64,000 nucleotides of DNA from a virus (IMGVR_UViG_2974513674_000001:32001-96000), one strand, 5' to 3'. Counted from the stretch's first letter, positions 21,996 to 63,977 are shown. A program made the numbers and translations. Notes: generated by a model not told the origin, from the letters alone.

Positions 21996-24900
21996 ATGAA
22001 CAACCTCTTAGGGGCCAAGACCCACTTTAGTCTCGGCGAATCCATCTACGACCCGGAAGCCCTCGTCAAAAAGGCAGAGCTTGCCGGGTACGATGGCATT
22101 GTCGTGACCGATGTCGAATCAATCGACTCGATGCCAATCCTGGCGGGCAAGGCGAAGGGCCTGCAAGTAGGACTGGGCGTGCAAATCTCAGTCGTCCAAG
22201 ACCTGACCTGGGTCGCAGCCAAACGGGGCGAGCCCAAGCGCGCGCCAAACCCGTTCTTCATGCCCACTCTGTTTGTTCGGAACGATGCCGGCTTCGCGGA
22301 CTTGTGCGAGCTGTTGACCCTCGCCCAGAGCGAAGATCACTTCTGCACGAAGCCAAGCCGTATGCAGATCGACCTGAGCGAGCTGCTGGCGTTCGTGCAG
22401 CGGGGCAACCTAACGATGACGCTGGGAAGCGCTTATAGCGCGCTACAGCACAAGCAACGCGAAGCGCTGCTAGATGCGTGCTGCGATGTCTTGGACGTCT
22501 CACAGATGCTCTGTGAGCTGATCCCAGTTAGCAGCGCATTCTATGATCGACACAACTTCAACACGCTGAAGCTGATGCAGGAACGGGGCATCGAAGGCAT
22601 CGTTACCAGGCCGACCCTCAATCAGAAAGACGAGGTCAGCTTCCGCAACACGATGAACTCGATCCTGTCGCACGACAAGGTCGACAGCACCTGGCGCCGC
22701 GAGCCGCCCGAAGACCTGCACATCATCGAAGCAACCGAAGTGGTCACACACGTCGGCACCCTGATCGAACGCATGGTCAAAATGGGGTTCGATGATGACG
22801 CGGCAACGGACATGATCAATCAGGCTTGGTGCAAGAACCAGGCGTACTTCACTGACCACCCGTACAAGTGGTCGAAGATGACCCCGAGCCTGCCCGTCAT
22901 GTCTGCCAACCCAATGGCTGACATCGTCGCGATCTGCAAGCAAGGCTGGAAAGAGCGCCTGGGCAAAGAGGTGTTCGGGTACAAGCCTGACGCAAGCCTG
23001 CTGCCCAAGTACCAGGAGCGCCTGAAGTATGAGCTGTCGATTCTCCAGAAGATGGAGTTCGAGCCGTACTTCCAGCTCGTTCACTACATCGTCAACTGGT
23101 CGAAGAACGACGGCATCATGGTTGGCCCGGGTCGGGGTTCGGTAGGTGGTTCGCTCGTTGCGTACCTGATGGGGATCACCGACGTGGACCCGATCCGCTT
23201 CGACCTGATCTTCGAGCGCTTCATCAACCCGGAACGTATCGACTTGCCCGACGTCGACCTCGACTTCATGTCCAGTCGCCGTCAAGACATCGTCGACCAC
23301 CTGGTGAGCAAGTTCGGCGACGAGCGTGTCGTCCAGATCGCCAACTACAACACCATCGCCGGTGCTGGTGCGATCCAAGCGGTGGGCAAGGCTCACGGCC
23401 TGCATGAGAGCCAGTACGAGTGCTCGAAGCTGGTTCCGAAAGAGTCGGGCGTGCCAATCCCTCTTGAGAAAGCGGTCGCGTTCGTGCCCGAACTTGAGAA
23501 GCTGGCTCTGAACCACCCTGAAGTCTGGGCAGCGTCCGTCGGCCTGCAAGGCACCTTCAAGAACTTCGCCAAGCACGCAGCCGGTGTCGTCGTAGCCGGT
23601 ACTGACATCGTGGGTCGCGGCGTAGTGAACCGGCGCCAGGGTGTGGGTATCGTGAACTGGGACAAGCGGGTCGTCGAAGACTTCGGCTTGATCAAGCTCG
23701 ACGTGCTGGGTCTGTCCAACTTGGATATTCTCCGTCTCGCACGGGACTACATCCGCGAAGCGCACGCAATCGAGGTCGACTTCACCACGCTTCCGCTCGA
23801 CGACAAGAAAGTCCTGGACAGCTTCGCAGCGGGCAAGACCTATGGCGTGTTCCAGTTCGAGTCTGGGGGTATGCGCAAGCTGCTCAAGGAACTCGGCAGC
23901 GGGGGCAATCTGACCTTTGAAGACTGTGTCGCCGCAACAGCACTGTTCCGACCCGGCCCAATCCAAGCTGGCCTGATGGACCTGTACGTGTCGATCAAGA
24001 AGGAATTCACCGAGCCGGAGTATCTGCACCCGAACATGAAAGCCGCACTGGAGCCCACGATGTCTGTGATGGTCTACCAGGAGCAGGTCATGCAAATCTC
24101 CCGTGACCTCGCCGGCTACACGTTCCCAGAGGCAGACGGCCTGCGGAAGATCATGGGTAAGAAAGACCCGGTCAAGATGGCCGAGCAGCGCGACAAGTTC
24201 GTCGATGGCTGTATCGCTACGTCTGGATTGGATCACGCAACCGCAACCTTCATCTTTGAGCAGATCGAGAAGTTCGCTGGCTACGGCTTCAACAAATCCC
24301 ACTCCGTCGCGTACACCCTCATTTCCTACATGACCATGTGGGTGAAGGTCTACTACCCAGAGGCGTTCTACGCCGCGTGCTTGTCGATCTTGGACGAGCA
24401 GAAGCTCTCAGGGCTAGCCAAAGACGCGCAAGCGAACGACATCTACATTGTCCCGCCTGACATCAACCACAGCTCAGGGCGGTACGAGGTGGGCTTTGAT
24501 GCGGCACGGGGTCAGAAGATTCTGTACGCACCGTTCCAGTCGATCAAAGGCATGAGCGACAAGTCGGCCGCTGCGATTGTGGCAGCACGTCAGAAGCTGG
24601 GTCGCGGCTTCAAGAATAAAGCGGAGCTGATCCTCGAAGTGGACCGGCGCGCTTGCAACAAGCGTCACCAGGAAATGCTGGACAAGATCGGGGCATTCGC
24701 CAAGATCGAACCTGGCCAACTGGACGCCCGACACCCGGATCGGTTGCGTGACCAGAAGGAGCTGCTGCCGGGCATCGTCGTCAGCAACGTGAAGGCGGAG
24801 AGGGTGATCGAAATCACTGGCGATGTCAGCGCAGAGCTGATCCAGATCGTCGACGACTTCCAAGCACACAAAGGCTGCGACGGCTGTCCGTTCATTGGTC

Positions 24901-25388
24901 GACCGCACCCTATGCCAGTCCTGGGCAAGAAGCCGAAGATCATGATCGTCCTCGATGGCCCATCGTACAAAGAGGAAGAGAAGGGTCAGATGATGGTCGG
25001 TGACACCGGCGCATTCATCAAGGCTGCGATGACGAAGGCTGGGCTCAAGATGTCTGAGGTCTACGTGACCAGCTACATCAAAGCCCGCAAGCTGAAGGAC
25101 GAGGAAATCGAGAACACGACCGCGAACGGCTGCGGCCGCTATCTCAACCGTGAAATCGACCTTCTGAAGCCGCCGGTGATCGTCGCCCTGGGCAGCAAGT
25201 CCGTGCGGCAACTGGTGCCGGACATCAAGGGCGGGTGGGAAGAGAACTGCGGCAAGTCGTTCTTCGATCCAAAGGCCGACTGCACAGTGGTCAGCGGTTT
25301 CAACCCGGCGATGATCTGCTTCGACGGCGCGAAACAGGCTCTGCTCGACCAGGTGTTCCAACAGGTAGCTGACATCTTCAGCGTATAA
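21996..25388 (+). CDS. dnaE: DNA polymerase III alpha (DnaE) with C-terminal family-4 UDG-like domain
   Basis: GPGRGSVGGSLVAY, FERFINPER, PDVDLDF, KHAAG, KLDVLGL, FQFES, FAGYGFNKSH; C-terminal CxxC...IVLDGP..E...REIDLLKP.VIVALG...NPA. Confidence 0.95.
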   Translation: MNNLLGAKTHFSLGESIYDPEALVKKAELAGYDGIVVTDVESIDSMPILAGKAKGLQVGLGVQISVVQDLTWVAAKRGEPKRAPNPFFMPTLFVRNDAGFADLCELLTLAQSEDHFCTKPSRMQIDLSELLAFVQRGNLTMTLGSAYSALQHKQREALLDACCDVLDVSQMLCELIPVSSAFYDRHNFNTLKLMQERGIEGIVTRPTLNQKDEVSFRNTMNSILSHDKVDSTWRREPPEDLHIIEATEVVTHVGTLIERMVKMGFDDDAATDMINQAWCKNQAYFTDHPYKWSKMTPSLPVMSANPMADIVAICKQGWKERLGKEVFGYKPDASLLPKYQERLKYELSILQKMEFEPYFQLVHYIVNWSKNDGIMVGPGRGSVGGSLVAYLMGITDVDPIRFDLIFERFINPERIDLPDVDLDFMSSRRQDIVDHLVSKFGDERVVQIANYNTIAGAGAIQAVGKAHGLHESQYECSKLVPKESGVPIPLEKAVAFVPELEKLALNHPEVWAASVGLQGTFKNFAKHAAGVVVAGTDIVGRGVVNRRQGVGIVNWDKRVVEDFGLIKLDVLGLSNLDILRLARDYIREAHAIEVDFTTLPLDDKKVLDSFAAGKTYGVFQFESGGMRKLLKELGSGGNLTFEDCVAATALFRPGPIQAGLMDLYVSIKKEFTEPEYLHPNMKAALEPTMSVMVYQEQVMQISRDLAGYTFPEADGLRKIMGKKDPVKMAEQRDKFVDGCIATSGLDHATATFIFEQIEKFAGYGFNKSHSVAYTLISYMTMWVKVYYPEAFYAACLSILDEQKLSGLAKDAQANDIYIVPPDINHSSGRYEVGFDAARGQKILYAPFQSIKGMSDKSAAAIVAARQKLGRGFKNKAELILEVDRRACNKRHQEMLDKIGAFAKIEPGQLDARHPDRLRDQKELLPGIVVSNVKAERVIEITGDVSAELIQIVDDFQAHKGCDGCPFIGRPHPMPVLGKKPKIMIVLDGPSYKEEEKGQMMVGDTGAFIKAAMTKAGLKMSEVYVTSYIKARKLKDEEIENTTANGCGRYLNREIDLLKPPVIVALGSKSVRQLVPDIKGGWEENCGKSFFDPKADCTVVSGFNPAMICFDGAKQALLDQVFQQVADIFSV

Positions 25389-25433
25389 CCCATAGAAACC
25401 CCAGCGTCAGCGCGCTTTAATAGCGTCTGACGC
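25389..25433 (+). promoter_or_regulatory. Phage promoter, -10 in hairpin loop
   Basis: CCC...CCCC-N13-TTTAAT(25416); GCGTCAG/CTGACGC outer stem. Confidence 0.6.
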
Positions 25434-25460
25434 ATTCACACAAACAGCGAGACTCAACCG

Positions 25461-26741: not shown

Positions 26742-26744
26742 CGA

Positions 26745-27269: not shown

Positions 27270-27313
27270 AATCAGCCTCAGATGTACCTGTAGCACAGTG
27301 TCAAAAACAGCAG

Positions 27314-27442: not shown

Positions 27443-27451
27443 TAACACAAG

Positions 27452-28291: not shown

Positions 28292-28309
28292 TCGAATCCA
28301 TCCGGTTTA

Positions 28310-28338: not shown

Positions 28339-28354
28339 CTCTGAGGTATCCGCT

Positions 28355-29311: not shown

Positions 29312-29322
29312 GGATCAAACAA

Positions 29323-31376: not shown

Positions 31377-31406
31377 CCCCAGTCTTTAGCGCTCATAATC
31401 AACGCT
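31377..31406 (+). promoter_or_regulatory. Phage promoter
   Basis: CCCC-N13-CATAAT(31394). Confidence 0.6.
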
Positions 31407-31428
31407 CAATCAAACAGCGAGTAGCCCA

Positions 31429-32517
31429 ATGAAACCATATGGAGTTATCTCTGATGTCCACTGTCATTCGTGGTCTCAGTTCAGCCGCCCTCTGCCAAGC
31501 GGTGTCAACAGCCGACTGCAAGACATCCTCGACGCCTTTGAAATGGCAGCGAAGCACGTCCTGAACTCTGACGGCGACACCCTGTTCATCACCGGCGATC
31601 TGTTCCATGTTCGCGGTTCTGTCAGCCCGAAGGTTCTGAACCCGGTCAAAGACGCCTTCGCCAAGCAGACGAAGAAGGGCCTGAAGATCGTTGTCCTCAC
31701 CGGCAACCACGACCTCGAAAGCCGTGACAGCGAAGCCCTGAGCAACGCCTGTGAAGCTCTGAGCCCAATCGAAGGCGTGACCATCGTCAGCAAGCCTCGC
31801 ATCTTCCACGATGACTTCGTGGTGATGATCCCCTGGTACGACAGCCTGGACACCGTGCGCAAGCACATCGCCGACTGCATCGAAGAAATCGAAGACCTGG
31901 GTGACGAAGCAGCCAACTACACGCTGATGCTGCACGTACCTGTGAACGGCGTTCTGTTCGGCATCCCTGATCACGGCTTCTACGCCAAAGAGCTTGAGAA
32001 GTTCGGCTTCCAGCGCGTGTTCTCGGGTCACTTCCACAACCACAAGAAGTTCGAGGGTGAGGTCTACAGCGTAGGCGCCCTGACGCATCAGACCTGGGGC
32101 GACGTGAAGAGCCTGGCTGGCCACATCATCGTGGACGACACCGGCGTGCGTCACTTCAAGAACAACAGCCCGGAGTTCAAGGACTTCGATCTGGCCTGGG
32201 ACGATGACACCGCTGCCGACGAGTGCAAAGGCTCGTTCGTTCGTGTTCGCCTGGGTGAAGCTGACAGCGACGAAATTGAAATGATCCGGGACCACATCCT
32301 GGGCCTGGGCGCACTCGGCTGCAACGTCGATGCGATCCCTGTTCCGAAGGGCACTGCAACTGCCCGCCCAGCGCCGGGTACTGCTGCGCCGGCCGCTCCA
32401 ACTGTTCGCCAGTCCATCGTTGATTGGATTCGTGCGAACTCTGCCGCCAGCACTTCGACCGACGTCGAGAAGCTGTGCATGGACATCATGACCGAAGTGG
32501 AGAGCATCACCGTATGA
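31429..32517 (+). CDS. sbcD: SbcD/Mre11-like nuclease
   Basis: SDVH, GDLFH, GNHD, SGHFH. Confidence 0.9.
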   Translation: MKPYGVISDVHCHSWSQFSRPLPSGVNSRLQDILDAFEMAAKHVLNSDGDTLFITGDLFHVRGSVSPKVLNPVKDAFAKQTKKGLKIVVLTGNHDLESRDSEALSNACEALSPIEGVTIVSKPRIFHDDFVVMIPWYDSLDTVRKHIADCIEEIEDLGDEAANYTLMLHVPVNGVLFGIPDHGFYAKELEKFGFQRVFSGHFHNHKKFEGEVYSVGALTHQTWGDVKSLAGHIIVDDTGVRHFKNNSPEFKDFDLAWDDDTAADECKGSFVRVRLGEADSDEIEMIRDHILGLGALGCNVDAIPVPKGTATARPAPGTAAPAAPTVRQSIVDWIRANSAASTSTDVEKLCMDIMTEVESITV

Positions 32518-34451
32518 AAATCCTGAAGGCGATCATCGACAACTTCGCCGCCATTGGGCACATCGAGGTCGAGCTGAATGACAAGGGCTTGGTGCTGATC
32601 CAGGGCGACAACAAGGACGACACTTCCCAGGACTCGAACGGTTCGGGCAAGTCGACCCTGCCGGATGCGCTGTGCTGGGCCTTCTACGGCGAGACTGCCA
32701 AAGGTCAGTCCGGTGACAAGCTGGTCAACCGCACCGCCAAGAAAGACTGCGCCGTTGAAGTGCATGTGGTCGACGAAGACACCGACGACGTGTTCCGCAT
32801 CAGTCGTCACCGCAAGCACAAGACCTACAAGAACATGCTGCGCCTGGAAGTGCTTCAGGGCTCGAACTGGAAAGACCTCACCGGCGGCACCGACAAGCTG
32901 ACCCAGGCGCTGGTCGAGAAGGTGATCGGCTGCAACTACGAAGTCTTCAAGTCCGCGATCTACGCTGGCCAAGAAGCCATGCCCGATCTGCCAGGCATGA
33001 CCGACAAGCAACTGAAGGTGCTGATCGAAGAGAGCGCCGGCATTGCACAGCTTCAAGCAGCCTCTGACATCGCGAACCGCCACGTCAAAGACCGCAAGCT
33101 GATCGTTCAGGATCACCAGGGCAAGATCGACAAGCTCCAGTCCAACATCGAATTGCTGGACAGCAACATCGTGACCCTCAAAAGCCGTTCGGAAGCCTGG
33201 GAAATCACTCAAGAAGCCAATATTGGCATCGCTGAAGACAACGTGACCACGCTCGAAGCCTCGTTCGACGACGCCCTGGGCGACCGCATCACGAAGAAGA
33301 AGACCCAGCTCGCTGACAAGTCCTCTGAAATTCGCACGCAGATCGCCGGCAGTGATGCTGAGCGTCTGCAAGAGCGTGTGCTGGCTGATGCGAAGGCGAA
33401 GGCTGACGCAGGCGAGTCGAACGCTGCCCACGCTTATGACACGGCCAAGAACCGCGTCAGCCACGCAGAGCACGCCTTGTCGCACGCCGGTGAGTCCGGT
33501 CACTGTGACACCTGCGGTCACGAACTCGACGCCAGCAACGTCGAGACGGCTAAAGCCAACGCTCAAGCAACGCTCGACAGCGAGAAATCAGCGCTTGCAG
33601 CAGCGAAGAAGGCACTGTCTGTAGCGCACGACAGCGCTGATACAGCGACGAAAGCGCTAGCAGAGCATCGCGACAACATGACAGACGTTAGCGCGCTCAC
33701 AAGCGAGCTACAGACGATCAGCGAGAACAGCGCGAAGCTGGACGCTGCGCTGACCGCCTGGAATCGTCAGAAGACTGGTCTTGAAGCGGCGAAGGCCAAC
33801 GTCCAGGCTGAGCGCGACAAGAAGAACCCCTACGGTCAACAGATCACCGACGCCGAAGCGCAGATCGACACGATCAACGCCAAGATCGAGGAAGTCGAAG
33901 AGCGCCGGGTCGAAGCAGCCAAAGAGCTGTTCATCGCCGAAGAAGCGGCGCGAGTGTACAACCAGGCCGGCGTGCGAGCGCACATCCTGGACACCGTGAC
34001 GCCGCACCTGAACGCCCGCACGTCGCACTACCTGTCCACGCTGACTGACGGCAACGTCTCCGCTATCTGGTCGACCGTCAGCAAGACTGCCAAAGGCGAG
34101 CTGCGCGAGAAGTTCGTGATCGACGTGGAGTCCAAGACGGGCGGCGAGTCCTTCAAAGACCTGTCGGGCGGTGAGAAGCGCAAGGTTCGCCTGGCGTGTG
34201 CAATGGCTCTGCAAGACCTGGTTGCAAGCCGGGCCAACAAGCCGATCAAGCTGTTCATCGCGGACGAAATCGACACCGCACTCGACGCAGCCGGCCTGGA
34301 ACGCCTGATGGCAATCCTCGATGCGAAGTCGCGAGACAAGGGCACCGTTCTGGTAGTCTCCCACTCCGACCTCCGCGACTTCATCCGTAACAGCGTGACG
34401 GTCGTCAAGCAGGGCGGCAAAGCTACCCTGGAAGCCAACACTATCCTGTGA
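32514..34451 (+). CDS. sbcC: SbcC/Rad50-like ATPase
   Basis: NGSGKST, coiled coil with CDTC zinc hook, LSGGE, IADE, VSH. Confidence 0.92.
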   Translation: MKILKAIIDNFAAIGHIEVELNDKGLVLIQGDNKDDTSQDSNGSGKSTLPDALCWAFYGETAKGQSGDKLVNRTAKKDCAVEVHVVDEDTDDVFRISRHRKHKTYKNMLRLEVLQGSNWKDLTGGTDKLTQALVEKVIGCNYEVFKSAIYAGQEAMPDLPGMTDKQLKVLIEESAGIAQLQAASDIANRHVKDRKLIVQDHQGKIDKLQSNIELLDSNIVTLKSRSEAWEITQEANIGIAEDNVTTLEASFDDALGDRITKKKTQLADKSSEIRTQIAGSDAERLQERVLADAKAKADAGESNAAHAYDTAKNRVSHAEHALSHAGESGHCDTCGHELDASNVETAKANAQATLDSEKSALAAAKKALSVAHDSADTATKALAEHRDNMTDVSALTSELQTISENSAKLDAALTAWNRQKTGLEAAKANVQAERDKKNPYGQQITDAEAQIDTINAKIEEVEERRVEAAKELFIAEEAARVYNQAGVRAHILDTVTPHLNARTSHYLSTLTDGNVSAIWSTVSKTAKGELREKFVIDVESKTGGESFKDLSGGEKRKVRLACAMALQDLVASRANKPIKLFIADEIDTALDAAGLERLMAILDAKSRDKGTVLVVSHSDLRDFIRNSVTVVKQGGKATLEANTIL

Positions 34452-39521: not shown

Positions 39522-39563
39522 CCCACGTAACCCCAACAATCGAGCGCTATCATTAGCGCTCGA
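39522..39563 (+). promoter_or_regulatory. Phage promoter, -10 in hairpin
   Basis: CCC-N7-CCC-N13-TATCAT(39548); TCGAGCGCTA/TAGCGCTCGA. Confidence 0.7.
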
Positions 39564-39591
39564 ATCGTTTAAACAGCATGAGACTCAAAGA

Positions 39592-40500
39592 ATGATCAGC
39601 ATGTCCGAGAAACTTGTAGAAATCGAACCGATGTCCGAAGAGCAGTGCTGGGCATCCATCGACCGTGTTGCTGAAGTCATGACCGTACCCGGCATGATGC
39701 AGTCCGAGCTGAAAGCTGATTCAGACCTGGGCAAGCCGTTCACTGATAACGCCAAGCAAATCCTGCACATCATCGTGGATCACTTCGACGCCGGTGAATC
39801 GCCGGATGACGACAAGCTGATCGACGGCTTGAACGACCTGTTCATCCAGAACCAGGCGCTGCAAACCAAGTACACCATCAAGCTGCTGACCCAGGCGTCG
39901 ATTGCGATGCAGCAATTGCCGCTCGCTGCGATGATCACCAGCATTCAAGACGTCGAATCGAAGGACGGCCTGACCCAAGAAGGTCTGGAAGAACTGAAGG
40001 CGATGGAAACCGAAGACAAGAAGTCCGGCATGGCCAGGATCGAACCTCGTCTGATGAAGATCATGGGCCTGGGTATCGACGCAGCCGGCGGTCAGCTTGA
40101 GTTCGCACGCCTTCAGAAGATCGTCAGCGACAAGATGCCGGAGCACTTCAAGGCCAGCCCTGAAATCGCCTTCACCTCGCAGATGATCGGCGCAATCATG
40201 ACCGCTGTCACCGCCCGCGCCGAGTCTCGCGAGTTCACCTTGTCGCAGATTCGTGCGACCATCGAAATGGTGATCGGCGCCAAGCAGGCTCTGACACTGG
40301 CCAACATGACTGCGTACCACATGGGGTCGAAGGAAGTGGTCGGCATCCTGGTTCGCAGCGCAGAGCACCACATCAATATCTCTGTGGATGAAACTGTCGT
40401 TGAAGTGCCTGAGAAGCAGAAGGTTGAGATTGAAGCGACCCACGTTGCCGATCACAAGCCTACTTCGACCCACGTTGCCGGCAACCGGACTGTCAACTGA
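39592..40500 (+). CDS. Hypothetical helical protein
   Basis: Long ORF with phage codon usage; start may be 39601. Confidence 0.65.
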   Translation: MISMSEKLVEIEPMSEEQCWASIDRVAEVMTVPGMMQSELKADSDLGKPFTDNAKQILHIIVDHFDAGESPDDDKLIDGLNDLFIQNQALQTKYTIKLLTQASIAMQQLPLAAMITSIQDVESKDGLTQEGLEELKAMETEDKKSGMARIEPRLMKIMGLGIDAAGGQLEFARLQKIVSDKMPEHFKASPEIAFTSQMIGAIMTAVTARAESREFTLSQIRATIEMVIGAKQALTLANMTAYHMGSKEVVGILVRSAEHHINISVDETVVEVPEKQKVEIEATHVADHKPTSTHVAGNRTVN

Positions 40501-43089: not shown

Positions 43090-43138
43090 AATCGCGGCGA
43101 AAAATTAGACGATTTTTGCCACGTACCTTACACAAAGC

Positions 43139-43199
43139 CCCATCAAGTCCCTCGTTCTGTGTGACATAGTGATCATGACTATTGAACGCAGAACGAGGG
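43139..43199 (+). promoter_or_regulatory. Phage promoter within a long hairpin
   Basis: CCC-N7-CCC-N13-CATAGT(43165); CCCTCGTTCTG...CAGAACGAGGG stem covers the SD. Confidence 0.6.
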
Positions 43200-43206
43200 A
43201 TTTTTC

Positions 43207-43512
43207 ATGCGAGCGAATATGAGAGCGATACAGACGTCCTCCGCGTTAGTTGTGCTCATTGCTGCAAGTGTTCTAGTTGTCGTCGCTGCACACGCTACAG
43301 AGCGTCACAGCGACACGCACAGCGAGCACAGACATAGCAGACACGAAACGCGACACATACACGCAGAACGCGAGCGCTACGAGCACCCGCCGCTGCACAG
43401 CGAAGGCACTCGGGAAGATGCCGACGCCTATCCCTCGTTCGATGATCCGGCTGACTACCGTGAAACCAATCGCTACAACCCATACTCCGATGAAACCTAC
43501 GACGAAGAGTGA
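43207..43512 (+). CDS. Signal-peptide/TM, His-rich hypothetical protein
   Basis: Hydrophobic N-terminus, H/R/E-rich middle; overlaps a CC/GG-free island. Confidence 0.45.
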   Translation: MRANMRAIQTSSALVVLIAASVLVVVAAHATERHSDTHSEHRHSRHETRHIHAERERYEHPPLHSEGTREDADAYPSFDDPADYRETNRYNPYSDETYDEE

Positions 43513-46640: not shown

Positions 46641-46668
46641 TAGCCGTCTAAGCCCAGAGTAAAACTGA

Positions 46669-46701
46669 CAGACTGTCTCTTAACAGAGCAGTCTGTTTTT
46701 T
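46669..46701 (+). terminator. Probable terminator
   Basis: CAGACTG..CTCT/AGAG-CAGTCTG followed by T tract. Confidence 0.6.
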
Positions 46702-46723
46702 ATTGTCAAGAGAAAAGTGGGAA

Positions 46724-50572: not shown

Positions 50573-50604
50573 GCCACGCTATGCCTGAGAAATCAGCGCA
50601 TAGT
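50573..50604 (+). promoter_or_regulatory. Phage promoter
   Basis: GCCACGCTATGCC-N13-CATAGT(50599). Confidence 0.65.
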
Positions 50605-50644
50605 GTGCATCTATCGAAACAGCACATAGCAAGAGAACAATCAC

Positions 50645-51136
50645 ATGGCTGATATTTATCAGAACATCGACGGGACCAGCATCGGGTCGAAGACCTGGGC
50701 CGAGAAGAAGGACTCGCCGGAGTGGACTCTGAAGGAGTACCGCAACGACAAAATCTGGGTGCGCCTGCACTGGATCGGCCGCTATCGCAAAGACCTGCCG
50801 GCTGAGTACCGTCATTCGCACGGCATCCAGGTCTACAACCGCTTGATCGTCAAGAAGACCGAGTGGGAAGAAGAGACCCTGGAAGATAAAGGCTGGGTGC
50901 TCGATCCGGCTGCGACCCAGACCTTCCGCACCAAGTCTGCTGCTGAAGCTGCATACGAAGACATGCTCCTGCGCTACACCGCATCGAGCCTGGAAATGGA
51001 TGAAGACGGTGAAATGACCTTCGTCGAAGTGGACAACCAGCTCGCACCGGTGGTGCCAGGTTCGTCGCTGATCCTCGATGAAGAACAGGTCGCACGCGCT
51101 GCTGAGAAAGGCATCGACGCCGGGGGCTGGTCTTGA
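50645..51136 (+). CDS. Hypothetical protein with C-terminal tag (AGGWS)
   Basis: ORF follows a promoter. Confidence 0.6.
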   Translation: MADIYQNIDGTSIGSKTWAEKKDSPEWTLKEYRNDKIWVRLHWIGRYRKDLPAEYRHSHGIQVYNRLIVKKTEWEEETLEDKGWVLDPAATQTFRTKSAAEAAYEDMLLRYTASSLEMDEDGEMTFVEVDNQLAPVVPGSSLILDEEQVARAAEKGIDAGGWS

Positions 51137-51751: not shown

Positions 51752-51783
51752 GCCACGCACTGCCTATTCCTGCTCTGTATAGT
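51752..51783 (+). promoter_or_regulatory. Phage promoter
   Basis: GCCACGCACTGCC-N13-TATAGT(51778); 14-mer identical to the one at 63361. Confidence 0.7.
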
Positions 51784-51840
51784 TCACTTACTGAAACGCG
51801 ACACACATTAAACAACTCAGCTTAAACAGGTACTTACAGC

Positions 51841-52946: not shown

Positions 52947-53131
52947 ACTGCACCATTTGCAACCTGCCTATCGTTCTGGTCCCCAGCGCCGCTGAGCGGG
53001 CCAAGCGCTACGGCGGGAAACCGTCTGACTACACCAAGCTGTTCACCACTCATGCCAAATGCGCTGTCGATAAGCGTGAGGCTGAAACCATCGCTCTGAT
53101 TCGGAGGAAAAATGCCCAAGCTAACCTGTGA
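52943..53131 (+). CDS. Small zinc-finger-like protein
   Basis: CTIC...HAKC. Confidence 0.55.
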   Translation: MNCTICNLPIVLVPSAAERAKRYGGKPSDYTKLFTTHAKCAVDKREAETIALIRRKNAQANL

Positions 53132-53648
53132 ACTGGTTCCATCCAACCAGTGGGGCACGAACCTGCGCAGCGTCCTGGCTCCGAAAGTCTGGGACTCGCT
53201 CCGCAAAGCCTGCTACGAACGTGCCGGCCACCGCTGCGAGATTTGCAATGGCGTCGGTCGCACCCACCCGGTCGAGTGCCATGAAACCTGGGAGTACACC
53301 GATGGCCCCGTGTGGATTCAGAAGCTCACCGGGTTGATCGCGCTGTGCCCAAGCTGCCACAAGGTGAAGCACATTGGCTTCGCGCTGACGCAGGGTGATC
53401 GCGCTTTCATGGCTGCGCTGAACCACCTGGCCAAAGTCAACGGCTGGTCGCCCACGCGGACGTATGACTACGTGAACAACCAGTTCGAGATTCACCGGGT
53501 TCGCAGTCAGATGCACTGGGTCATGGACCTCGACTGGCTCGACAACATGCAAAGCTACATCGACGAGACAGCAACCGCAGCACGGCAAGCTCGCTCTGAG
53601 CGCGCTGCTGCGACGATAGCGAATATGACTCGCAAGCGTGACGCTTAG
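53112..53648 (+). CDS. HNH-like (His-Me finger) protein
   Basis: RCEICNG...ECHE...LCPSCHKVKH. Confidence 0.7.
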   Translation: MPKLTCELVPSNQWGTNLRSVLAPKVWDSLRKACYERAGHRCEICNGVGRTHPVECHETWEYTDGPVWIQKLTGLIALCPSCHKVKHIGFALTQGDRAFMAALNHLAKVNGWSPTRTYDYVNNQFEIHRVRSQMHWVMDLDWLDNMQSYIDETATAARQARSERAAATIANMTRKRDA

Positions 53649-53700
53649 AGCGAATCGCTCTTAAACGAGCGCACAGAGCGTCCAACAGAGCTGAGTGGGC

Positions 53701-55423: not shown

Positions 55424-55463
55424 CCCACACAAGCCCAACGTGCGCTCTATAAACTGAGCGCAC
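55424..55463 (+). promoter_or_regulatory. Phage promoter, -10 in hairpin loop
   Basis: CCC-N7-CCC-N13-TAAACT(55450); GTGCGCTC/GAGCGCAC, the same stem as at 20086. Confidence 0.7.
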
Positions 55464-55488
55464 TCACAGCGAAACGATGAGGCAACCC

Positions 55489-57685: not shown

Positions 57686-57690
57686 ACATC

Positions 57691-58884: not shown

Positions 58885-58906
58885 GTCTCCTGGGCTTCAC
58901 TCGAAG

Positions 58907-58942
58907 CCCAGCCTCCCCCTCTCTCACAGCTCGTATAATCGA
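58907..58942 (+). promoter_or_regulatory. Phage promoter
   Basis: CCC-N7-CCC-N14-TATAAT(58934). Confidence 0.65.
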
Positions 58943-58994
58943 CGTCACAGACAAAGCGCAGTCGTTGCGCAGTCACAGTGAGGGAACGTCGCAT

Positions 58995-59213
58995 ATGAGC
59001 TTACAAGAGCTTTTCCGCAATGCTCGACAGCTTGAGCAATTCGAGCAATCAGCACGCGATCAGGGTTTCACGAACTTCGGCAAGCGTGGCGGGTTCTACA
59101 ACCTGTCCGACCTGAACATCTTCGCATCCGGCTACCTGGCCTGCCTGAAGTCGCTGCCAAAACCTGAGAAGGCGCACGTCATCGACGTTGAGCGAGTGGC
59201 ATCGTGCATCTGA
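58995..59213 (+). CDS. Small hypothetical protein
   Basis: GAGGG SD. Confidence 0.5.
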   Translation: MSLQELFRNARQLEQFEQSARDQGFTNFGKRGGFYNLSDLNIFASGYLACLKSLPKPEKAHVIDVERVASCI

Positions 59214-59749
59214 GTCCTGAGTACAACCTGGTCAAGTCCTACTACGGTGATCAGCGCGCCAAGCGTTCCGGTGTCCTCAAGATGAACCACATCGACGAAG
59301 GCATCGAAATGCTGCGTGTGATGGGTGCAAGTGAGCTGGCCATCAAAGCCTACTGCCTGCACCCTCTGGCCCAGGGTGGTGACTTCGGCTGGGAAATGGT
59401 TCTGACCACGCCCGGCCTGAACCCGAAAGCCGTGATCCTCTCGACCCAGTATCGTGACAAGGCAAACGCCTACCTGTGCCGGCCCAACACCGATCACTAC
59501 ACGGTCGAGAGCCTGAACGACGTCATTGGCCCTCTGAGCCAAGACCTGATCCACATGCTGGTGGCTGACAAGATCCAGAACGAGAAAGACTTCGATCTGT
59601 ATCACAAGGGCACCCACGCTCGCAGCGCCGAACTCTCCCGGTACTTCTGCATCTGGCTCGACTACCTTGAGGTGGCTGAAGCCAACCTGAAGAAAGAATC
59701 CGGCCGTCTGAAGTACCGCCATAAATACCGCGACCACAAGAAGAAGTGA
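59204..59749 (+). CDS. Degenerate HD-domain (SpoT/Mesh1-like) protein
   Basis: RAKRSGVLKMNH / AYCLHP / LVADKIQN resemble RKSGEPYIxH / AALLHD / VKLADRLHN. Confidence 0.45.
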   Translation: MHLSPEYNLVKSYYGDQRAKRSGVLKMNHIDEGIEMLRVMGASELAIKAYCLHPLAQGGDFGWEMVLTTPGLNPKAVILSTQYRDKANAYLCRPNTDHYTVESLNDVIGPLSQDLIHMLVADKIQNEKDFDLYHKGTHARSAELSRYFCIWLDYLEVAEANLKKESGRLKYRHKYRDHKKK

Positions 59750-61116
59750 CCATGACAACTATCCACCGCGTTTTCCTCTACAGCAGCGACGTCGGCCGTC
59801 TGACACACGAAGACGACTTCAACACCCCCGAAGAAGCGAAAGCCTGCGTCGAGCAGTGGATCGATGACCGTGATTGGGATGAAGAGCTGGAACGTGGCAT
59901 GTTCCGCATCGACGTGCGCAAGAACGGCCACCTGAAGGGCAACTACGGCGCCTACGCTCACGCCTATCCGATCCTGAAGAAGCCTGTGAGCGTCGAAGGC
60001 GAGAGCATCGAAGCCTTCAACGAGAAGAACCGCAAGTACCAGACCGACATCCAGGTCAAGTCGCGCCAGATCCTGGGTCATGTGCCGTATCCGACCCGTG
60101 AATGTGCTGAGCTGGCCATCGACCGAGCTGTTGACGAGCTGGCTCAAGAGCTGGACATCAGGCTGTACGGCCGCATTCAGCGTGAGCAGCGCGCTGCCGG
60201 CATTCATGAGCGCTTCATCACCGACCTCACGCCATTCGGCTTCAAGGTCTATCGCGGTGATGGTCCGAAGTTCCAGTACGACGAATCGGTGACCATCGAA
60301 GACCTGAAAAACCTGAAGTTCCCAGAGCCGAGCACCATCCTCTCGAAAAGACAGGGTTTCGACGTCAAGTCCGGCGCTCTGCGAGTCACCGACCCTTGCT
60401 ACAGCCTGGACACCTGGTGTGCCGGCACCACCAGCAACGTCATGAATGGCCGCTGGCTCGCACAAGTTGGCCAGCACCGTGAAGCGATGGACAAGTGGAC
60501 GAAAGAACGCTTCGAGAAAGAAATCGCCGAGCTTGAGAACCCGGAAGAGCAGATTCGGGTCAAGCAACTGCAAGAAGCCATCAAGAACCTGGATGGCCTT
60601 GAGCTTGAAGAGGCTCAGAAGAACCTCAAGGGCCTGATTGGCTTCTACGAGAGCCACGCACTGCGCGAGTTCGGCCGCTGCTGGGGCAACCCTGACGACT
60701 GGAGCGGTCGAGTAGCCTTCCTGCACATCCGGCATGAGTCTGTAGCGAACGAGCCGATTGACCCGCTCTCCTTCGTGCCGAACGATGACTTCCAGGTTGG
60801 TGTGGACAGTGGACAGGCCGGGTTCTTTGACCTCGCACCGTTCGAGCTGGTCGCAGCCCAGAAGGAACATAAGGGCGACACGCCAGAACATGAAGCCTTC
60901 TACGAGGCGTGCGGCGAGAACACCCTGGGATCGGAAATGTGGGGCATCGTCCAGGGTATGGGTTGCGTCAGCAGCAGCGGTTATGGCGACGGCGGCTACA
61001 AGCTGTGCGAACGTCGCAACGAAGCCGGCGAGCTGATCGAGGCTCGCATCGTCTACATGCTCGAAGGCAGCGAAATGTTCCCGGGCATTGGCGGTGACGA
61101 AGAAGACGAGGAATAA
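59746..61116 (+). CDS. Multi-domain protein with DUF4241-like C-domain
   Basis: SGALRVTDPCY, GVDSGQAGFFD, SGYGDGGY. Confidence 0.6.
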   Translation: MTMTTIHRVFLYSSDVGRLTHEDDFNTPEEAKACVEQWIDDRDWDEELERGMFRIDVRKNGHLKGNYGAYAHAYPILKKPVSVEGESIEAFNEKNRKYQTDIQVKSRQILGHVPYPTRECAELAIDRAVDELAQELDIRLYGRIQREQRAAGIHERFITDLTPFGFKVYRGDGPKFQYDESVTIEDLKNLKFPEPSTILSKRQGFDVKSGALRVTDPCYSLDTWCAGTTSNVMNGRWLAQVGQHREAMDKWTKERFEKEIAELENPEEQIRVKQLQEAIKNLDGLELEEAQKNLKGLIGFYESHALREFGRCWGNPDDWSGRVAFLHIRHESVANEPIDPLSFVPNDDFQVGVDSGQAGFFDLAPFELVAAQKEHKGDTPEHEAFYEACGENTLGSEMWGIVQGMGCVSSSGYGDGGYKLCERRNEAGELIEARIVYMLEGSEMFPGIGGDEEDEE

Positions 61117-61120
61117 GTAG

Positions 61121-61513
61121 ATGGCCACATTGACCGGCAAGCTGATCGCAAAAGCCCAACGTGCAATCGTGGCCTACTACCACCTCTGCACCGATCATGA
61201 CGACTGGGGCACCCTGGATGAGCACTGGCTTCAGGTTCTCGCTGAGAGCCCGGCACCAGGCTACTTGAACAGGTACTTCGTCCGAGTCAAGAACACCAGA
61301 CGCTTCGAGCACCAGAAGAACGCTCTGAGCGACATCGACCGCAGCAGAGGCATCATGTGCGTCACCTTTCTGCATGGGTCGATCACACCTGACACCGGGT
61401 GGTACATCAAGCCGAGTGGTCGCCATGCAAACCCACTCGAAAACTATCAACATAGAGACGCGCAAGAAGAGATTGCGACCAACAGACCAGAGAATTTCGG
61501 GAGCTGGGCATGA
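61121..61513 (+). CDS. Hypothetical protein with C-terminal tag (RPENFGSWA)
   Basis: GAGGA SD. Confidence 0.6.
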   Translation: MATLTGKLIAKAQRAIVAYYHLCTDHDDWGTLDEHWLQVLAESPAPGYLNRYFVRVKNTRRFEHQKNALSDIDRSRGIMCVTFLHGSITPDTGWYIKPSGRHANPLENYQHRDAQEEIATNRPENFGSWA

Positions 61514-61926
61514 GTGGTATGAACACCGAGCAGTGCAAAGAGCTGATCATGAAGGTGATGAACGAGCTGATCACCAAAGTTGGTCTGAACGCAATGGCCG
61601 TCTACCGCCAGGAGACTGGCAGCTCGCTTCAAGATGTGCTCGACACCAAGAAGTGGAAACGCACGCGCAAGTGGGGATCGGCCGGCAACGTCAGCCGTGA
61701 GTTCTCGCACATGGGCTTCAGGGCCACCGTCGTGCTGCGTGAGGTGATAAACACAGACGGCACGCTCAGTGTCGAGATTGAAATGGGTGAGCTGCCGAAA
61801 CCTCTGCAAGAGGCAACGAAAGACCTGAAAGACCTTGACCTGCCGGGCGATCAGACCGCGCGGCGCGTAGACAAACCATCAATGACAGAGGGGCCGAAGC
61901 CAGAAGGTTTCGGGGCATTCGCATGA
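61510..61926 (+). CDS. Hypothetical protein with C-terminal tag (KPEGFGAFA)
   Basis: ATGA-coupled. Confidence 0.6.
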   Translation: MSGMNTEQCKELIMKVMNELITKVGLNAMAVYRQETGSSLQDVLDTKKWKRTRKWGSAGNVSREFSHMGFRATVVLREVINTDGTLSVEIEMGELPKPLQEATKDLKDLDLPGDQTARRVDKPSMTEGPKPEGFGAFA

Positions 61927-62231
61927 GCATCTTGACCCGCAAGGTTACTATCAAAGAGGACGAGCTGGGCCTGTTCGTGCTGTACAAGCCCAGGTTTCCT
62001 CAGAAGAACATGGGTGACAAGTTCGTCATCCGGCTGCCGGCCAAGCGAAATATGTTCGACAGCGACAAGATCGACCCGCCGTTCGAGGCAGGTCAGAAGG
62101 TGCTGGTGCAGGAATTCAACCCGAACATGGGCTGGTTCAAGGTACGGCGTCAGGGTGATGGGCAGTATGGGCTGTGGGATGGCCCACGCTGGGTAACTAA
62201 CGGATTCACGGCATGTTGGGTGGAGCAATGA
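61923..62231 (+). CDS. Hypothetical protein
   Basis: ATGA-coupled. Confidence 0.55.
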   Translation: MSILTRKVTIKEDELGLFVLYKPRFPQKNMGDKFVIRLPAKRNMFDSDKIDPPFEAGQKVLVQEFNPNMGWFKVRRQGDGQYGLWDGPRWVTNGFTACWVEQ

Positions 62232-62413
62232 ACCACGAAATCTTCCGCAAAGAGTACGGCGGCGAAGACATCAACGACATCGAACGGGATATGTCTGAAG
62301 CCTTCGATCCAGATTACAACCCGAAAGCGGCCATCGTGACCACTGACGAGCATGGCTTCGTCAACGGCAAGGTTGTCGTCACCATGACCTGGGTGCCCGA
62401 CGATGAATCTTGA
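62228..62413 (+). CDS. Small acidic hypothetical protein
   Basis: GGAG SD, ATGA-coupled. Confidence 0.5.
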   Translation: MNHEIFRKEYGGEDINDIERDMSEAFDPDYNPKAAIVTTDEHGFVNGKVVVTMTWVPDDES

Positions 62414-62579
62414 AACCCCCTGCACTGACGAGCCAACAAATTCTGCCGTATTCAACATCGACAAAGATGAAGGCTTTCTCAGCATTGAGCTTGAGCTGAA
62501 TGATGGCGACACCCACATGACTCTCATGAGCCTGAAAGACGCCGAAGTTTTGCGTCAGTGGCTGTGTGACAACCTGTGA
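62403..62579 (+). CDS. Small acidic hypothetical protein (not in the ORF track)
   Basis: 58-aa ORF filling the gap, GTGA-coupled to the next gene. Confidence 0.45.
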   Translation: MNLETPCTDEPTNSAVFNIDKDEGFLSIELELNDGDTHMTLMSLKDAEVLRQWLCDNL

Positions 62580-62947
62580 GTAAGTTCAACCCATACGCGC
62601 TGAACAAGCCGTGCGAGAACTGCCCGTTCCTGAAAGACGAGAGCAAGGCCATCAGGCTGCAACGAGGCCGGCGTGACGGGATCATCGAAGACCTGCTCGA
62701 CGGCTCAGTAACCGGCTTCTCATGTCACAAGACAGTCCACAGCAAGACGGGCGGCGAGTGGGATGAAGATGGGGACGGCAGCTACATCCCGTCAGGCCGT
62801 GAGCTTGAGTGCGCCGGTGCTATCGCCGTACTTGAGAAGCTGAATCGTCCCACTCAGCTCATGCGCATCATGGAACGCATGGGTGCATATGACCGCAACA
62901 AGTACATCCCTCTCTTCGATCTGGTCATCGACTACGATCCCACCTGA
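62576..62947 (+). CDS. Cys/His metal-binding protein, paralogous to 12738..13154
   Basis: PCENCPF...FSCHK...CAG. Confidence 0.6.
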   Translation: MSKFNPYALNKPCENCPFLKDESKAIRLQRGRRDGIIEDLLDGSVTGFSCHKTVHSKTGGEWDEDGDGSYIPSGRELECAGAIAVLEKLNRPTQLMRIMERMGAYDRNKYIPLFDLVIDYDPT

Positions 62948-62958
62948 TCTGCTAAGGT

Positions 62959-62982
62959 AAAGCCCTCACTTCAGAGGGCTTT
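62959..62982 (+). terminator. Hairpin (terminator or SD-sequestering)
   Basis: AAAGCCCTC-acttca-GAGGGCTTT overlapping the SD of 62986. Confidence 0.5.
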
Positions 62983-62985
62983 ATC

Positions 62986-63330
62986 ATGAGCAAGACCGAA
63001 TTCACCTTCAAAGTTTCCGGCGACACCACCATCGGTAAGCTGGTCACCTCCCAGAAACACCCGGCCGCCACACTTGAGCTGAAAGATGGCACTGTCACGC
63101 TGAACAGCCGTGAGTACCTCAGTTCTGAACCTGTCAGCCAGGTCATCGTGCAGGGTGTGAAGCGCGGCGCCATCCTCAATATCACCGTCGAGCGCACTGA
63201 ACGTCAGGTGCTGACCGTTACAGTCGATGAACACAAGGTGGTCAGCCATTTGAACTGGCCGTCGTACCGCGGCGAGCCAATGAGCTTCACCTTCAAGCGC
63301 GGCCAGAAGCCGTCAGAGCTGGCTGAGTAA
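62986..63330 (+). CDS. Hypothetical beta-rich protein
   Basis: ORF with phage codon usage. Confidence 0.55.
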   Translation: MSKTEFTFKVSGDTTIGKLVTSQKHPAATLELKDGTVTLNSREYLSSEPVSQVIVQGVKRGAILNITVERTERQVLTVTVDEHKVVSHLNWPSYRGEPMSFTFKRGQKPSELAE

Positions 63331-63360
63331 CCAAAGTGCGCTGCTGGTCGCCGACTGGCA

Positions 63361-63392
63361 GCCACGCACTGCCTTGATCTGTCTCGTAAAAT
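63361..63392 (+). promoter_or_regulatory. Phage promoter
   Basis: GCCACGCACTGCC-N13-TAAAAT(63387). Confidence 0.7.
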
Positions 63393-63425
63393 GCTTGCAC
63401 ACGTCACAAACGAGAGTGCAAGAAA

Positions 63426-63977
63426 ATGACAGATAAGAAGAACGGCCATGACCACGACCCAGCTCATGAGTGCGCACACTGCGCAGCACTCGCTTCAGGC
63501 ATGTCTGAAGAAGAGGCTCTTGTCGCCGGCCTGCTGACCACTCAGCAGATGATCCAGGCTCACGGCATCGCAGTCATGGGTGTCGGTCCTGACCCTGAGA
63601 CTGGCATCCCCTCGTTCTGCTACACCACTGGGTTCACCAGCATTGGCTTCCCAGAAGTCATCTGCTTCGGCGTAGACCCTCGCGTTCTCACCCACGTCTT
63701 CAACATCTACCACGCTGAGCTGCTTGCGGGCAGCAAACAGCCGGGTGCCGGGTTGATCGACTACTTCGAGCTGCCGATTCATGCCATCGAGTGCGACTTC
63801 GACAACGCCAAAGAGTTCGCGACCCAGGCTGTCGCCTACTACGAGATTGTCGAAGACGACAAGGTCACACCGAATTTCGTTCAATGGGTGCTGGCTGACA
63901 TGAACGGCAAGATGCCCTGGGAACCCGGCTTCAACCCGGCGTTCACTCAACCGCTGCTGGGAGCAACACCGGAATGA
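63426..63977 (+). CDS. DUF4262-like protein
   Basis: FCYTTG....GFPEVICFG...Q.V..D.NG..PW. Confidence 0.7.
   Translation: MTDKKNGHDHDPAHECAHCAALASGMSEEEALVAGLLTTQQMIQAHGIAVMGVGPDPETGIPSFCYTTGFTSIGFPEVICFGVDPRVLTHVFNIYHAELLAGSKQPGAGLIDYFELPIHAIECDFDNAKEFATQAVAYYEIVEDDKVTPNFVQWVLADMNGKMPWEPGFNPAFTQPLLGATPE

Follow-up and report, generated by a model that had tools for sequence, protein, structure and literature searches.

CC/GG-free islands behind C-tracts, and an early unit devoid of CC/GG, in a Nickievirus genome

Middle promoters of phage T4 combine a sigma70 -10 element with a MotA box at -30, which is read by MotA/AsiA. To our knowledge, the word that forms this box is not purged from the DNA downstream. 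In phage T5, the first-step-transfer (pre-early) DNA, which enters the cell first, is reported to lack EcoRI sites. We know of no counterpart in T5 to the promoter islands described below.

The DNA studied here is a window of 64,000 nucleotides, bases 32001-96000 of the 112-kb genome of a Nickievirus, a siphovirus of Pseudomonas syringae. Positions refer to the window unless given as genome positions. As in motif avoidance by phages, a short word has been removed by selection: CC/GG is in deficit genome-wide and hexamer palindromes are close to zero. Unlike in motif avoidance, the purge is complete within restricted zones, which go with promoters, leaders and one transcription unit; it also has a strand direction, and it has reshaped protein composition (no Gly, Pro or Trp). 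Strand-symmetric avoidance independent of expression signals does not describe these islands, which lie between a C-tract and a start codon and are bounded by CC rather than GG (44:7). Like T4 middle promoters, the predicted promoters would use, next to a sigma70-like -10, an element specific to the phage near -30 instead of a -35, and putative factors would come from an early unit with a host-type promoter. Unlike in T4, the element is a C-tract, and Pfam and PHROG searches matched neither early protein (ORF A, ORF B) to MotA or AsiA or to any other family. The small early unit resembles T5 first-step-transfer DNA in being free of a word abundant elsewhere in the genome, although the word here is a dinucleotide and not a restriction site. 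The relative Nican01 is reported with long terminal repeats ("DTR (long)"; PMC11256456). T5 has ends of this kind as well. No terminal repeats are present in the assembly analysed here, in which repeats are collapsed.

Ten strand-symmetric dinucleotide classes were compared for the length of stretches lacking them, with Markov-1 sequences as control. Outlier runs occur in the CC/GG class only. The longest CC/GG-free runs in the genome measure 1137, 145, 129, 98, 98 and 88 nt; in the Markov-1 sequences the longest run averages 78 nt and reaches 111 nt at most. Within-gene shuffling of synonymous codons gave no run of at least 120 nt in 300 shuffles, while two are observed (the 145- and 129-nt coding islands). 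Total CC/GG stands at 14748, versus 15914 +/- 39 in the shuffles (7% lower), and the genome-wide observed/expected ratio is 0.82 for CC and 0.78 for GG. CC-free and GG-free runs coincide, and the purge of CC is as complete as that of GG. Shorter islands of 45-70 nt number 51, close to the Markov-1 expectation of 46; they are distinguished by position, direction and conservation, not by excess number.

An initial annotation of the window had described several of these stretches, and on recount all of its island and promoter-stretch coordinates proved exact. CC and GG are both absent from 33612-33740, 43243-43385, 53586-53681, 63374-63443 and six stretches assigned to promoters; 22427-22580 holds one GG and one CCC, and 58920-59062 only GGG and one CC. 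That annotation had also held that base composition (AT content) was not the cause, which agrees with the restriction of outlier runs to one dinucleotide class and with the failure of the shuffles to reproduce them. Two checks it had proposed likewise came out in its favor: the long coding islands exceed all 300 codon shuffles, and islands stay CC/GG-free in the two relatives compared, Nican01 (21% diverged) and hairong (31% diverged). The islands in or next to coding sequence are as follows.

43242..43386, + strand: 145-nt CC/GG-free run inside the small membrane/His-rich ORF 43207-43512; reproduced by no codon shuffle
43151-43238: promoter-leader zone, continued by the 145-nt run
33557..33740, + strand: CC/GG-free runs of 55 and 129 nt, split by a single GG, within the SbcC-like gene 32424-34451
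53585..53682, + strand: 98-nt run spanning the end of ORF 53112-53648 and the leader after it, with a hairpin and the leader motif TTAAACGAG
22426..22580, + strand: two runs, 68 and 56 nt, inside dnaE (codons ~144-195)

Across orthologous stretches, CC/GG occurs at 0.008 per nt in Nican01 and 0.003 in hairong, compared with ~0.11 in controls. The Nican01 ortholog of 53585..53682 is 102 nt long and has accumulated 41 differences with no CC/GG. In dnaE, offset 430-497 is CC/GG-free in both relatives, with 23 differences and again no CC/GG in hairong. The sbcC island is matched in Nican01 by a 164-nt free run at the same place, though its first half is unalignable. These data support strong local purifying selection against CC/GG. 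Since relatives share the same gaps, something reads the CC/GG step.

The islands had further been proposed to recur about every 10 kb as regularly spaced loading or entry sites. This spacing did not hold up: when periods of 4-20 kb were scanned by Rayleigh test in three genomes, p was 0.47-1.0, and no regular array of such sites is supported. The five islands behind the proposal were selected from ~20 of similar size.

A different order emerged from the island boundaries. At the low-coordinate side, CC outnumbers GG by 44:7 over 51 islands (p = 3.5e-7), so that 44 of the 51 start at a C-tract on the coding strand. The same bias is seen in Nican01 (38:8) and hairong (41:21). Half of the CC-side boundaries are CCC or CCCC, versus ~21% genome-wide. 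The earlier remark that C-runs sit just upstream of CC/GG-free promoter stretches is thus borne out. The direction of the islands and their link to C-tract promoters are new in this analysis. An alignment of the form C-tract / N12-14 / TAnAAT takes in about 19 islands, which end at start codons. The C-tract (CC to CCCC) lies near -27/-30, ending ~13-14 nt before a sigma70-like -10 hexamer; a second C-tract often lies one helical turn further upstream, and a canonical -35 is absent. Between the C-tract and the start codon both dinucleotides are purged, and the ribosome site is often included (AACGAGAG instead of GGAG). Judged by sequence layout, these ~19 islands would make up one phage promoter family, in which a conserved element near -30 replaces the -35 and the -10 is sigma70-like. 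The layout is kept in relatives and in the phage RHEph10. The sites in the window are given below with the features on which each call was made.

63373..63444, + strand: predicted C-tract promoter core and leader of gene 63426, reaching into its first codons (layout, relatives)
39534..39605, + strand: predicted C-tract promoter (CCCC-N6-CCCC) and leader of gene 39592; -10 within an inverted repeat; kept in Nican01 and hairong
20081..20146, + strand: predicted C-tract promoter core and leader, gene 20156 (layout, relatives)
25402..25458, + strand: predicted C-tract promoter core and leader, gene 25461 (layout, relatives)
17910..17970, + strand: C-tract promoter-like core and leader in the region of a CobT-like gene (layout, relatives)
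15566..15615, + strand: predicted C-tract promoter core; -10 in a palindrome; leader AAACGAGAGAAC (relatives)
50585..50647, + strand: predicted C-tract promoter core and leader, gene 50645 (layout, relatives)
51770..51829, + strand: predicted C-tract promoter core and leader, gene 51841 (layout, relatives)
58919..59063, + strand: predicted C-tract promoter with TATAAT, followed by the leader, a ribosome site reading GGG and the first codons; only the GGG and one CC present
46655..46719, + strand: CC/GG-free leader ahead of gene 46703, bounded by a C-tract and containing a hairpin (relatives)
31380..31425, + strand: predicted C-tract promoter core and leader, gene 31429 (layout)
55436..55481, + strand: predicted C-tract promoter core and leader, gene 55477 (layout)
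11756..11807, + strand: predicted C-tract promoter core and leader, gene 11817 (layout)
9952..9998, + strand: C-tract promoter-like core with TATACT (layout)

The second dnaE run (56 nt) also has a C-tract / -10-like layout; the first dnaE island and the sbcC island have no clear promoter layout. Promoter cores are therefore involved, as had been claimed, but the claim that most promoters are CC/GG-free was overstated: 6-10 of 45 upstream regions qualify. Six of the 45 have no CC/GG at all in -60..-1, against 0.07 expected. GG is absent from the Shine-Dalgarno window of 26 of 45 leader regions, compared with 39 of 135 for all + strand genes.

The 1137-nt run lies 7.9 kb beyond the window, at genome positions 103938-105074, and spans one transcription unit, terminator included, with zero CC/GG. 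This early unit encodes ORF A (184 aa) and the basic ORF B (107 aa), both without Gly, Pro and Trp. Given these amino-acid sequences, 54 CC/GG would be expected in ORF A and 31 in ORF B; none is observed. Its predicted promoter is sigma70-like (TTGCAC-16-TAGAAT). With its -35 matching at 3 of 6 positions only, the ORF A promoter was missed by a sigma70 promoter scan. Depletion extends to promoter DNA that is not transcribed: ~145 nt ahead of the ORF A start hold 1 CC/GG. The void is preserved in ZY21, Nican01 and hairong, and the unit with its peculiar proteins in about 60 relatives; Gly, Pro and Trp are absent in ~62 of 74 homologs, down to 46% identity. The void tracks the transcription unit, not ORF content, measuring 785 nt where ORF B is missing; in one lineage it is leaky, with ~10 CC/GG in 1.3 kb. 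The ORF A model (pLDDT 96) consists of a helical hairpin and a C-terminal winged helix. Residues 105-184 overlay winged-helix regulators, with TubR at Z 8.5 (rmsd 2.2 A over 74 residues) and the ArsR and MarR families at Z 7-8. For ORF B, modeled with medium confidence (pLDDT 72), a fold search gave no clear match. A tblastn search found no ORF A in isolated phages outside Nickievirus, and Rfam had no match in the early region.

We then compared more distant lineages. RHEph10 has both features: its void holds 5 CC/GG in 1149 nt, and its islands are bounded by C-tracts (31:4) and share the layout. Neither feature occurs in SSU5 (33:26) or BUCTxx99 (9:9), and no di- or trinucleotide class in these two has an outlier run that could serve as another banned word. 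Void and C-tract islands thus co-occur across lineages, four in all. The void proteins of Nickievirus show no detectable homology to those of RHEph10 (hhalign probability 0.6%), so no common reader protein is pinpointed. All four lineages share a candidate ParB-ParB-ABC-GNAT-like module, which in our genome lies outside the window at genome positions 3275-7184, directly before terS/terL, and is syntenic in RHEph10, SSU5 and BUCTxx99. ParB_N occurs in it twice, together with an ABC ATPase (phrog_293/11143) and phrog_886; the nearest Pfam-bearing ESM-Atlas clusters of the latter are GNAT acetyltransferases (score 0.97), an assignment based on ESM-Atlas features only. SSU5-type phage-plasmids have this module in the same place, upstream of the terminase, and some records annotate it as an ABC-type ATPase fused to an acyltransferase domain. 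In SSU5 and BUCTxx99, unlike here, the module comes without a void; with the module in 4/4 lineages and the void in 2/4, its presence does not track the void.

Selection strong enough to drop three amino acids implies a reader of CC/GG, of phage or host, on DNA or RNA. We tentatively propose, with a probability of roughly 0.35, that the transcription programme of the phage reads the C-tract as a word. The C-tract (the CC:GG step) would be read on DNA, by analogy with the -30 MotA box of T4 middle promoters. The word would be removed where reading it would mis-place or block RNA polymerase (core, initially transcribed region, leader), and also from the early unit, which unmodified host polymerase must keep transcribing and which may encode the reader. 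Selection, direction, promoter layout and co-occurrence across lineages are observed here, whereas the identity of a reader and the reason why one dinucleotide should matter are inferred. Against such a reader stands the fact that a sequence-specific binder does not normally need the removal of every CC. A wider form of the proposal, possible but doubtful, is a reserved-word code common to Nickievirus, RHEph10-type phages and possibly many others. C-tracts would mark promoters for a phage-directed polymerase, and CC:GG would be banned from cores, leaders and the immediate-early unit encoding the reader, hence the lack of Gly, Pro and Trp.

Other readings account for parts of the pattern. Type I-F CRISPR-Cas systems are rare in P. 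syringae. CC/GG could nonetheless be the recognition element of a host DNA-targeting system of this kind, purged where targeting hurts most, in promoters and in the first-expressed, possibly first-entering, unit. This lineage does live by motif avoidance, with more than 20 hexamer palindromes purged to ~zero, and both the low genome-wide CC/GG ratios and the 7% shortfall under shuffling fit such pressure, as does the leaky void, which suggests that the pressure is quantitative. CC is the type I-F PAM, and CC depletion is published for type I-F-targeted P. aeruginosa phages (PMC12174588); the long repeats reported for Nican01 (PMC11256456) would suit a first-entering unit like that of T5. However, a strand-symmetric target predicts neither coding-strand C-tract starts nor the link to start codons, and the loss of 1% of PAMs would give little protection if the DNA concerned were not specially exposed. 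We regard such evasion as unlikely. None of the 1222 type I-F spacers listed (120 loci) matches the three Nickievirus genomes, a result that speaks neither for nor against it. Rather more unlikely is a system in which the phage marks or coats CC/GG, with the ParB-ParB-ABC ATPase-GNAT-like module as candidate writer and unmarked windows kept for unmodified host polymerase. It would account for void and promoter windows alike, and the module does keep its place before the terminase; yet in SSU5 and BUCTxx99 it comes with no void in any di- or trinucleotide class. Sites containing CC/GG (GGGCCC, AGGCCT, CCATGG, GGATCC, TCCGGA, CCTAGG) are purged as strongly as restriction sites without it, which would be needless if CC/GG carried a protective mark and therefore counts against modification. 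A Pfam scan of ~120 ORFs found no other modification enzyme (methylase, TGT/DpdA or glycosyltransferase).

A reader of RNA would fit other features. Leaders and early mRNA could be kept free of GG (and CC) so that a repressor binding RNA, or an RNase, does not act on them; Rsm/CsrA, which binds GGA at ribosome sites, would be an example. The extent of islands from promoter to start codon, the scarcity of GG in Shine-Dalgarno windows and the coincidence of the void with one transcription unit are in line with this. It is nevertheless improbable, given that CC is purged as fully as GG, in coinciding runs, and that untranscribed DNA upstream of ORF A is depleted as well. That chance, base or amino-acid composition produced the islands, with the 10-kb spacing a real periodic feature, is scarcely credible. 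The number of 45-70-nt islands is indeed near the Markov-1 expectation and several islands are AT-richer, but the long islands and the conservation exceed Markov-1, shuffle and ortholog controls, and periodicity is not significant.

Returning to the C-tract as a word read in transcription, selection on two letters here removes three amino acids from proteins and shapes ~20 promoter regions. No description of a CC/GG reader was found in the literature searched. The promoter link makes the CC/GG question testable at the bench. Among the public read runs listed, there are only metagenome contigs (shares <=0.35) and no RNA run. The same link to C-tract promoters also offers an easy way of spotting immediate-early units and promoters from the genome sequence of a large, poorly annotated phage group, some members of which serve in biocontrol of kiwifruit and stone-fruit canker.

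Clusters of AGCGCT/GCGC were considered as a separate signal and rejected, AGCGCT being only mildly over-represented across the genome (73 observed versus 45 expected). Its density in the early-unit void arises because GC content there comes without CC/GG.

The window comes from a 112,225-bp genome with 57% GC, of which it forms bases 32001-96000. Its relatives, Pseudomonas syringae siphoviruses of the genus Nickievirus, show ~87% identity to it over dnaE (Nican01, phiK7B1 and ZY21) or 74% (hairong). In gene content the genome resembles SSU5 and RHEph10, carrying DnaE, ribonucleotide reductase, CobT/CobS-like genes and, ahead of the terminase, ParB-like genes. The initial annotation had described stretches of the window that lack CC and GG dinucleotides (islands), and every coordinate it gave was exact on recheck. 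CC/GG is alone among the ten strand-symmetric dinucleotide classes in having outlier free runs, which genome-wide measure 1137, 145, 129, 98, 98, and 88 nt. Under a first-order Markov model, the longest CC/GG-free run is 78 nt on average and 111 nt at most; the remaining dinucleotide classes all fit this null. The runs also exceed codon-shuffled expectation. When synonymous codons were shuffled within each gene 300 times, a run of at least 120 nt arose in 0/300 shuffles, and coding islands of 145 and 129 nt are observed. The genome as a whole contains 14,748 CC/GG, below the 15,914 +/- 39 of the synonymous shuffles, and therefore the step is avoided genome-wide too, at codon junctions.

The islands are conserved as CC/GG-free in relatives. 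Islands of at least 50 nt were mapped onto Nican01, where 29 of them (2005 nt) carry 423 differences (21%) and only 17 CC/GG, a density of 0.008 per nt versus 0.113 in matched controls. The five mapped in hairong (310 nt) hold a single CC/GG despite 31% differences. The dnaE island occupies offset 430-497 in this genome, Nican01 and hairong alike, and the sbcC island corresponds in Nican01 to 164 nt free of CC/GG, though half of it is unalignable. A spacing of about 10 kb, also proposed at the outset, did not hold. A Rayleigh scan over periods of 4-20 kb, four length thresholds and three genomes gave p = 0.47-1.0, and the five islands near 22.5, 33.6, 43.3, 53.6, and 63.4 kb are a selection from ~20 of similar size. 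Regularly spaced sites are thus not supported.

Shorter islands (45-70 nt) number 51, against a first-order Markov expectation of 46, so their number is unremarkable. They are distinguished by position, direction and conservation. In 45 upstream regions (-60 to -1) chosen independently of CC/GG content, six have zero CC/GG (0.07 expected) and ten have at most one (0.43 expected). The islands are directional: the low-coordinate boundary is CC in 44/51 and GG otherwise (p = 3.5e-7), and the CC:GG boundary ratio is 38:8 in Nican01 and 41:21 in hairong. Half of the CC-type boundaries are CCC or CCCC, a class that makes up ~21% of C-tracts (runs of CC to CCCC) genome-wide.

Aligned on the C-tract boundary, ~19 islands, 15 of them in the window, show one layout. 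The C-tract, frequently preceded by another 8-10 nt upstream of it, is followed by a 12-14-nt spacer that often starts with A or CAG and ends with GCGC. Next come a sigma70-like -10 (TAnAAT), often within a short inverted repeat, and an A-rich leader carrying, for example, TTAAACGAG or AACAGCGAG, before the start codon. These alignments and the 44 CC boundaries bear out the earlier remark that C-runs sit just upstream of the islands, and the C-runs mark a predicted promoter family that lacks a canonical -35. GG is absent from the Shine-Dalgarno window in 26/45 such regions, compared with 39/135 of all plus-strand genes. The layout is present in the second dnaE run; neither the first dnaE run nor the sbcC island shows it clearly. 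In the 145-nt island, such a promoter-leader zone reaches into the first 60 codons of the gene for a small membrane protein. The islands are thus genuine, under selection and conserved, and the majority form parts of predicted promoters.

Window 43207-43512: 101-aa protein with no family match; one transmembrane helix, then a His/Arg/Glu-rich tract (HATERHSDTHSEHRHSRHETRHIH)
Window 15576-15594, 20087-20109, 39543-39562, 55442-55464: -10 sites within inverted repeats (arm examples GTGCGCTC..GAGCGCAC and GAGCGCTA..TAGCGCTC)

At several C-tract promoters a short inverted repeat surrounds the -10 hexamer, placing it in the loop or at the centre, and the repeat arms vary from one promoter to another. 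These may be a hairpin/cruciform feature or dimer operators. Leaders of ~15 window genes have GG-less ribosome-binding regions (AAACGAGAG, AACAGCGAG), and operon-internal genes have GGAG-type sites.

The extreme case, the void, starts 7.9 kb beyond the window end.

Genome 103938-105074: void, 1137 nt, 46% GC, zero CC/GG

The preceding 82 nt are likewise CC/GG-free. The void is one predicted transcription unit, comprising a promoter, a ribosome site (GAGAG), ORF A, a hairpin with a run of T's behind it, and ORF B. Its promoter is sigma70-like (TTGCAC-16-TAGAAT) and was not called by a consensus sigma70 scan because the -35 matches at only 3/6 positions. ORF A encodes 184 aa (pI 8.5) and ORF B 107 aa (pI 10.4), the latter protein being kept in four phages; both proteins lack Gly, Pro and Trp. 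Given the amino-acid sequences, 54 CC/GG would be expected in ORF A (z = -9.7) and 31 in ORF B (z = -6.6), and no other gene has a comparable deficit. At 66-80% DNA identity, the void persists in ZY21 (1108 nt), Nican01 (1083 nt) and hairong (1125 nt, with adjoining stretches of 166 and 77 nt).

Gly, Pro and Trp are also absent from ~62/74 metagenomic ORF A homologs, down to 46% identity. Composition is normal in two distant homologs (31-35% identity), as is CC/GG density at the locus of one. In one homolog lineage ORF B is absent and the void spans 785 nt; another lineage is leaky, with ~10 CC/GG in 1.3 kb. Together these indicate that it is the transcription unit, rather than any one protein, that is constrained. 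ORF A is modelled (pLDDT 96) as a long helical hairpin followed by a winged helix at the C-terminus. The winged helix superposes on TubR (Z 8.5, rmsd 2.2 A over 74 residues) and, at Z 7-8, on regulators of the ArsR and MarR types, scores that are middling yet consistent and span the whole domain. A DNA mimic is unlikely, since ORF A at pI 8.5 is not acidic.

The islands had been read as the footprint of a CC/GG modification or coating system. A Pfam scan of ~120 ORFs found no DNA methylase, TGT/DpdA, queuosine-pathway enzyme or glycosyltransferase. A candidate writer is a ParB-ABC ATPase-GNAT-like module near the genome start.

Genome 3275-7184 (L002:3275-7184), outside the window: the module, directly upstream of terS-like/terL

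Its order is ParB_N, a small ORF, ParB_N, an ABC ATPase (phrog_293/11143), a 111-aa ORF, phrog_886 and phrog_900; the nearest Pfam-bearing ESM-Atlas clusters to phrog_886 are GNAT acetyltransferases. We compared the complete genomes of RHEph10, SSU5 and BUCTxx99, in all of which the module is syntenic. RHEph10 has a void (98834-99982, 5 CC/GG in 1149 nt), whereas in SSU5 and BUCTxx99 whole-genome searches of every di- and trinucleotide class found none. Module and void thus do not go together across these genomes, which weakens the module as a candidate writer. The void-bearing lineages have C-tract-bounded islands (44:7 here, 31:4 in RHEph10), and in RHEph10, too, a C-tract near -27/-30 accompanies a -10; the void-less lineages lack the boundary bias (SSU5 33:26, BUCTxx99 9:9). 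Across only four lineages, then, the void goes with the promoter family and not with the module. No homology is detectable between the void proteins of the Nickievirus and RHEph10 lineages, so they identify no common reader.

Avoidance of palindromes is typical of restriction-exposed DNA. Across the whole genome, more than 20 hexamer palindromes occur at 0-2 copies where 15-80 are expected. Those purged include CAGCTG, CTGCAG, GAGCTC, CTCGAG, CACGTG and ACGCGT, without CC/GG, and GGGCCC, AGGCCT, CCATGG, GGATCC, TCCGGA and CCTAGG, with it. CC/GG-containing palindromes are purged about as often as the rest, evidence against CC/GG carrying a protective mark. GGTACC occurs 0 times here, 0 times in Nican01 and 54 times in hairong; GGCGCC occurs 56 times here and once in Nican01. 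With no known modification enzyme in the scan, CC/GG sites purged and the module not tracking the void, the proposed footprint is not supported, and CC/GG-directed modification with unmarked windows appears rather unlikely.

We favor, at a probability of about 35%, a reading in which the C-tract is a DNA word read by the phage transcription programme, and propose it as an analogue of the T4 MotA box at -30. Such a word would be counter-selected where reading it would block or misplace polymerase, and also over an early unit transcribed by unmodified host polymerase. The void unit may itself encode the reader, ORF A being a winged-helix protein by model. That the phage is escaping a CC/GG-reading host system, for example one using the type I-F PAM, is possible but unlikely. 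This reading fits the lineage's own habit of site avoidance, the CC depletion published for P. aeruginosa phages (PMC12174588) and the long terminal repeats reported for Nican01 (PMC11256456), but the islands' strand direction counts against it. An RNA-level reader of CC/GG is very doubtful, as CC is purged as fully as GG, with identical boundaries. We found no published description of a CC/GG ban.

CCCCTTACACAACCA(G/C) occurs three times, at spacings of 37 and 41 nt, over the start of the ORF after the void (L001:9128-9221 = genome 105128-105221; L001 is the DNA past the window end). The related CCTTACACAAAGCCCC occurs in the promoter at window ~43125-43150, and this motif is possibly a regulator site. 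Located 0.5-3 kb upstream of the void, L001:4600-5250 and 6800-7430 (genome ~100.6-101.25 and 102.8-103.4 kb) are gene-poor, with several families of 24-53-nt direct repeats, and could be an origin, packaging site or repeat boundary. The early region also has repeated TTTGCAAGCGTTTA(Y) / AAACGCTTGCAA motifs (L001:1826, 5395, 5422, 6126, 7639, 9888 and others), probably host-type early promoters or operators.
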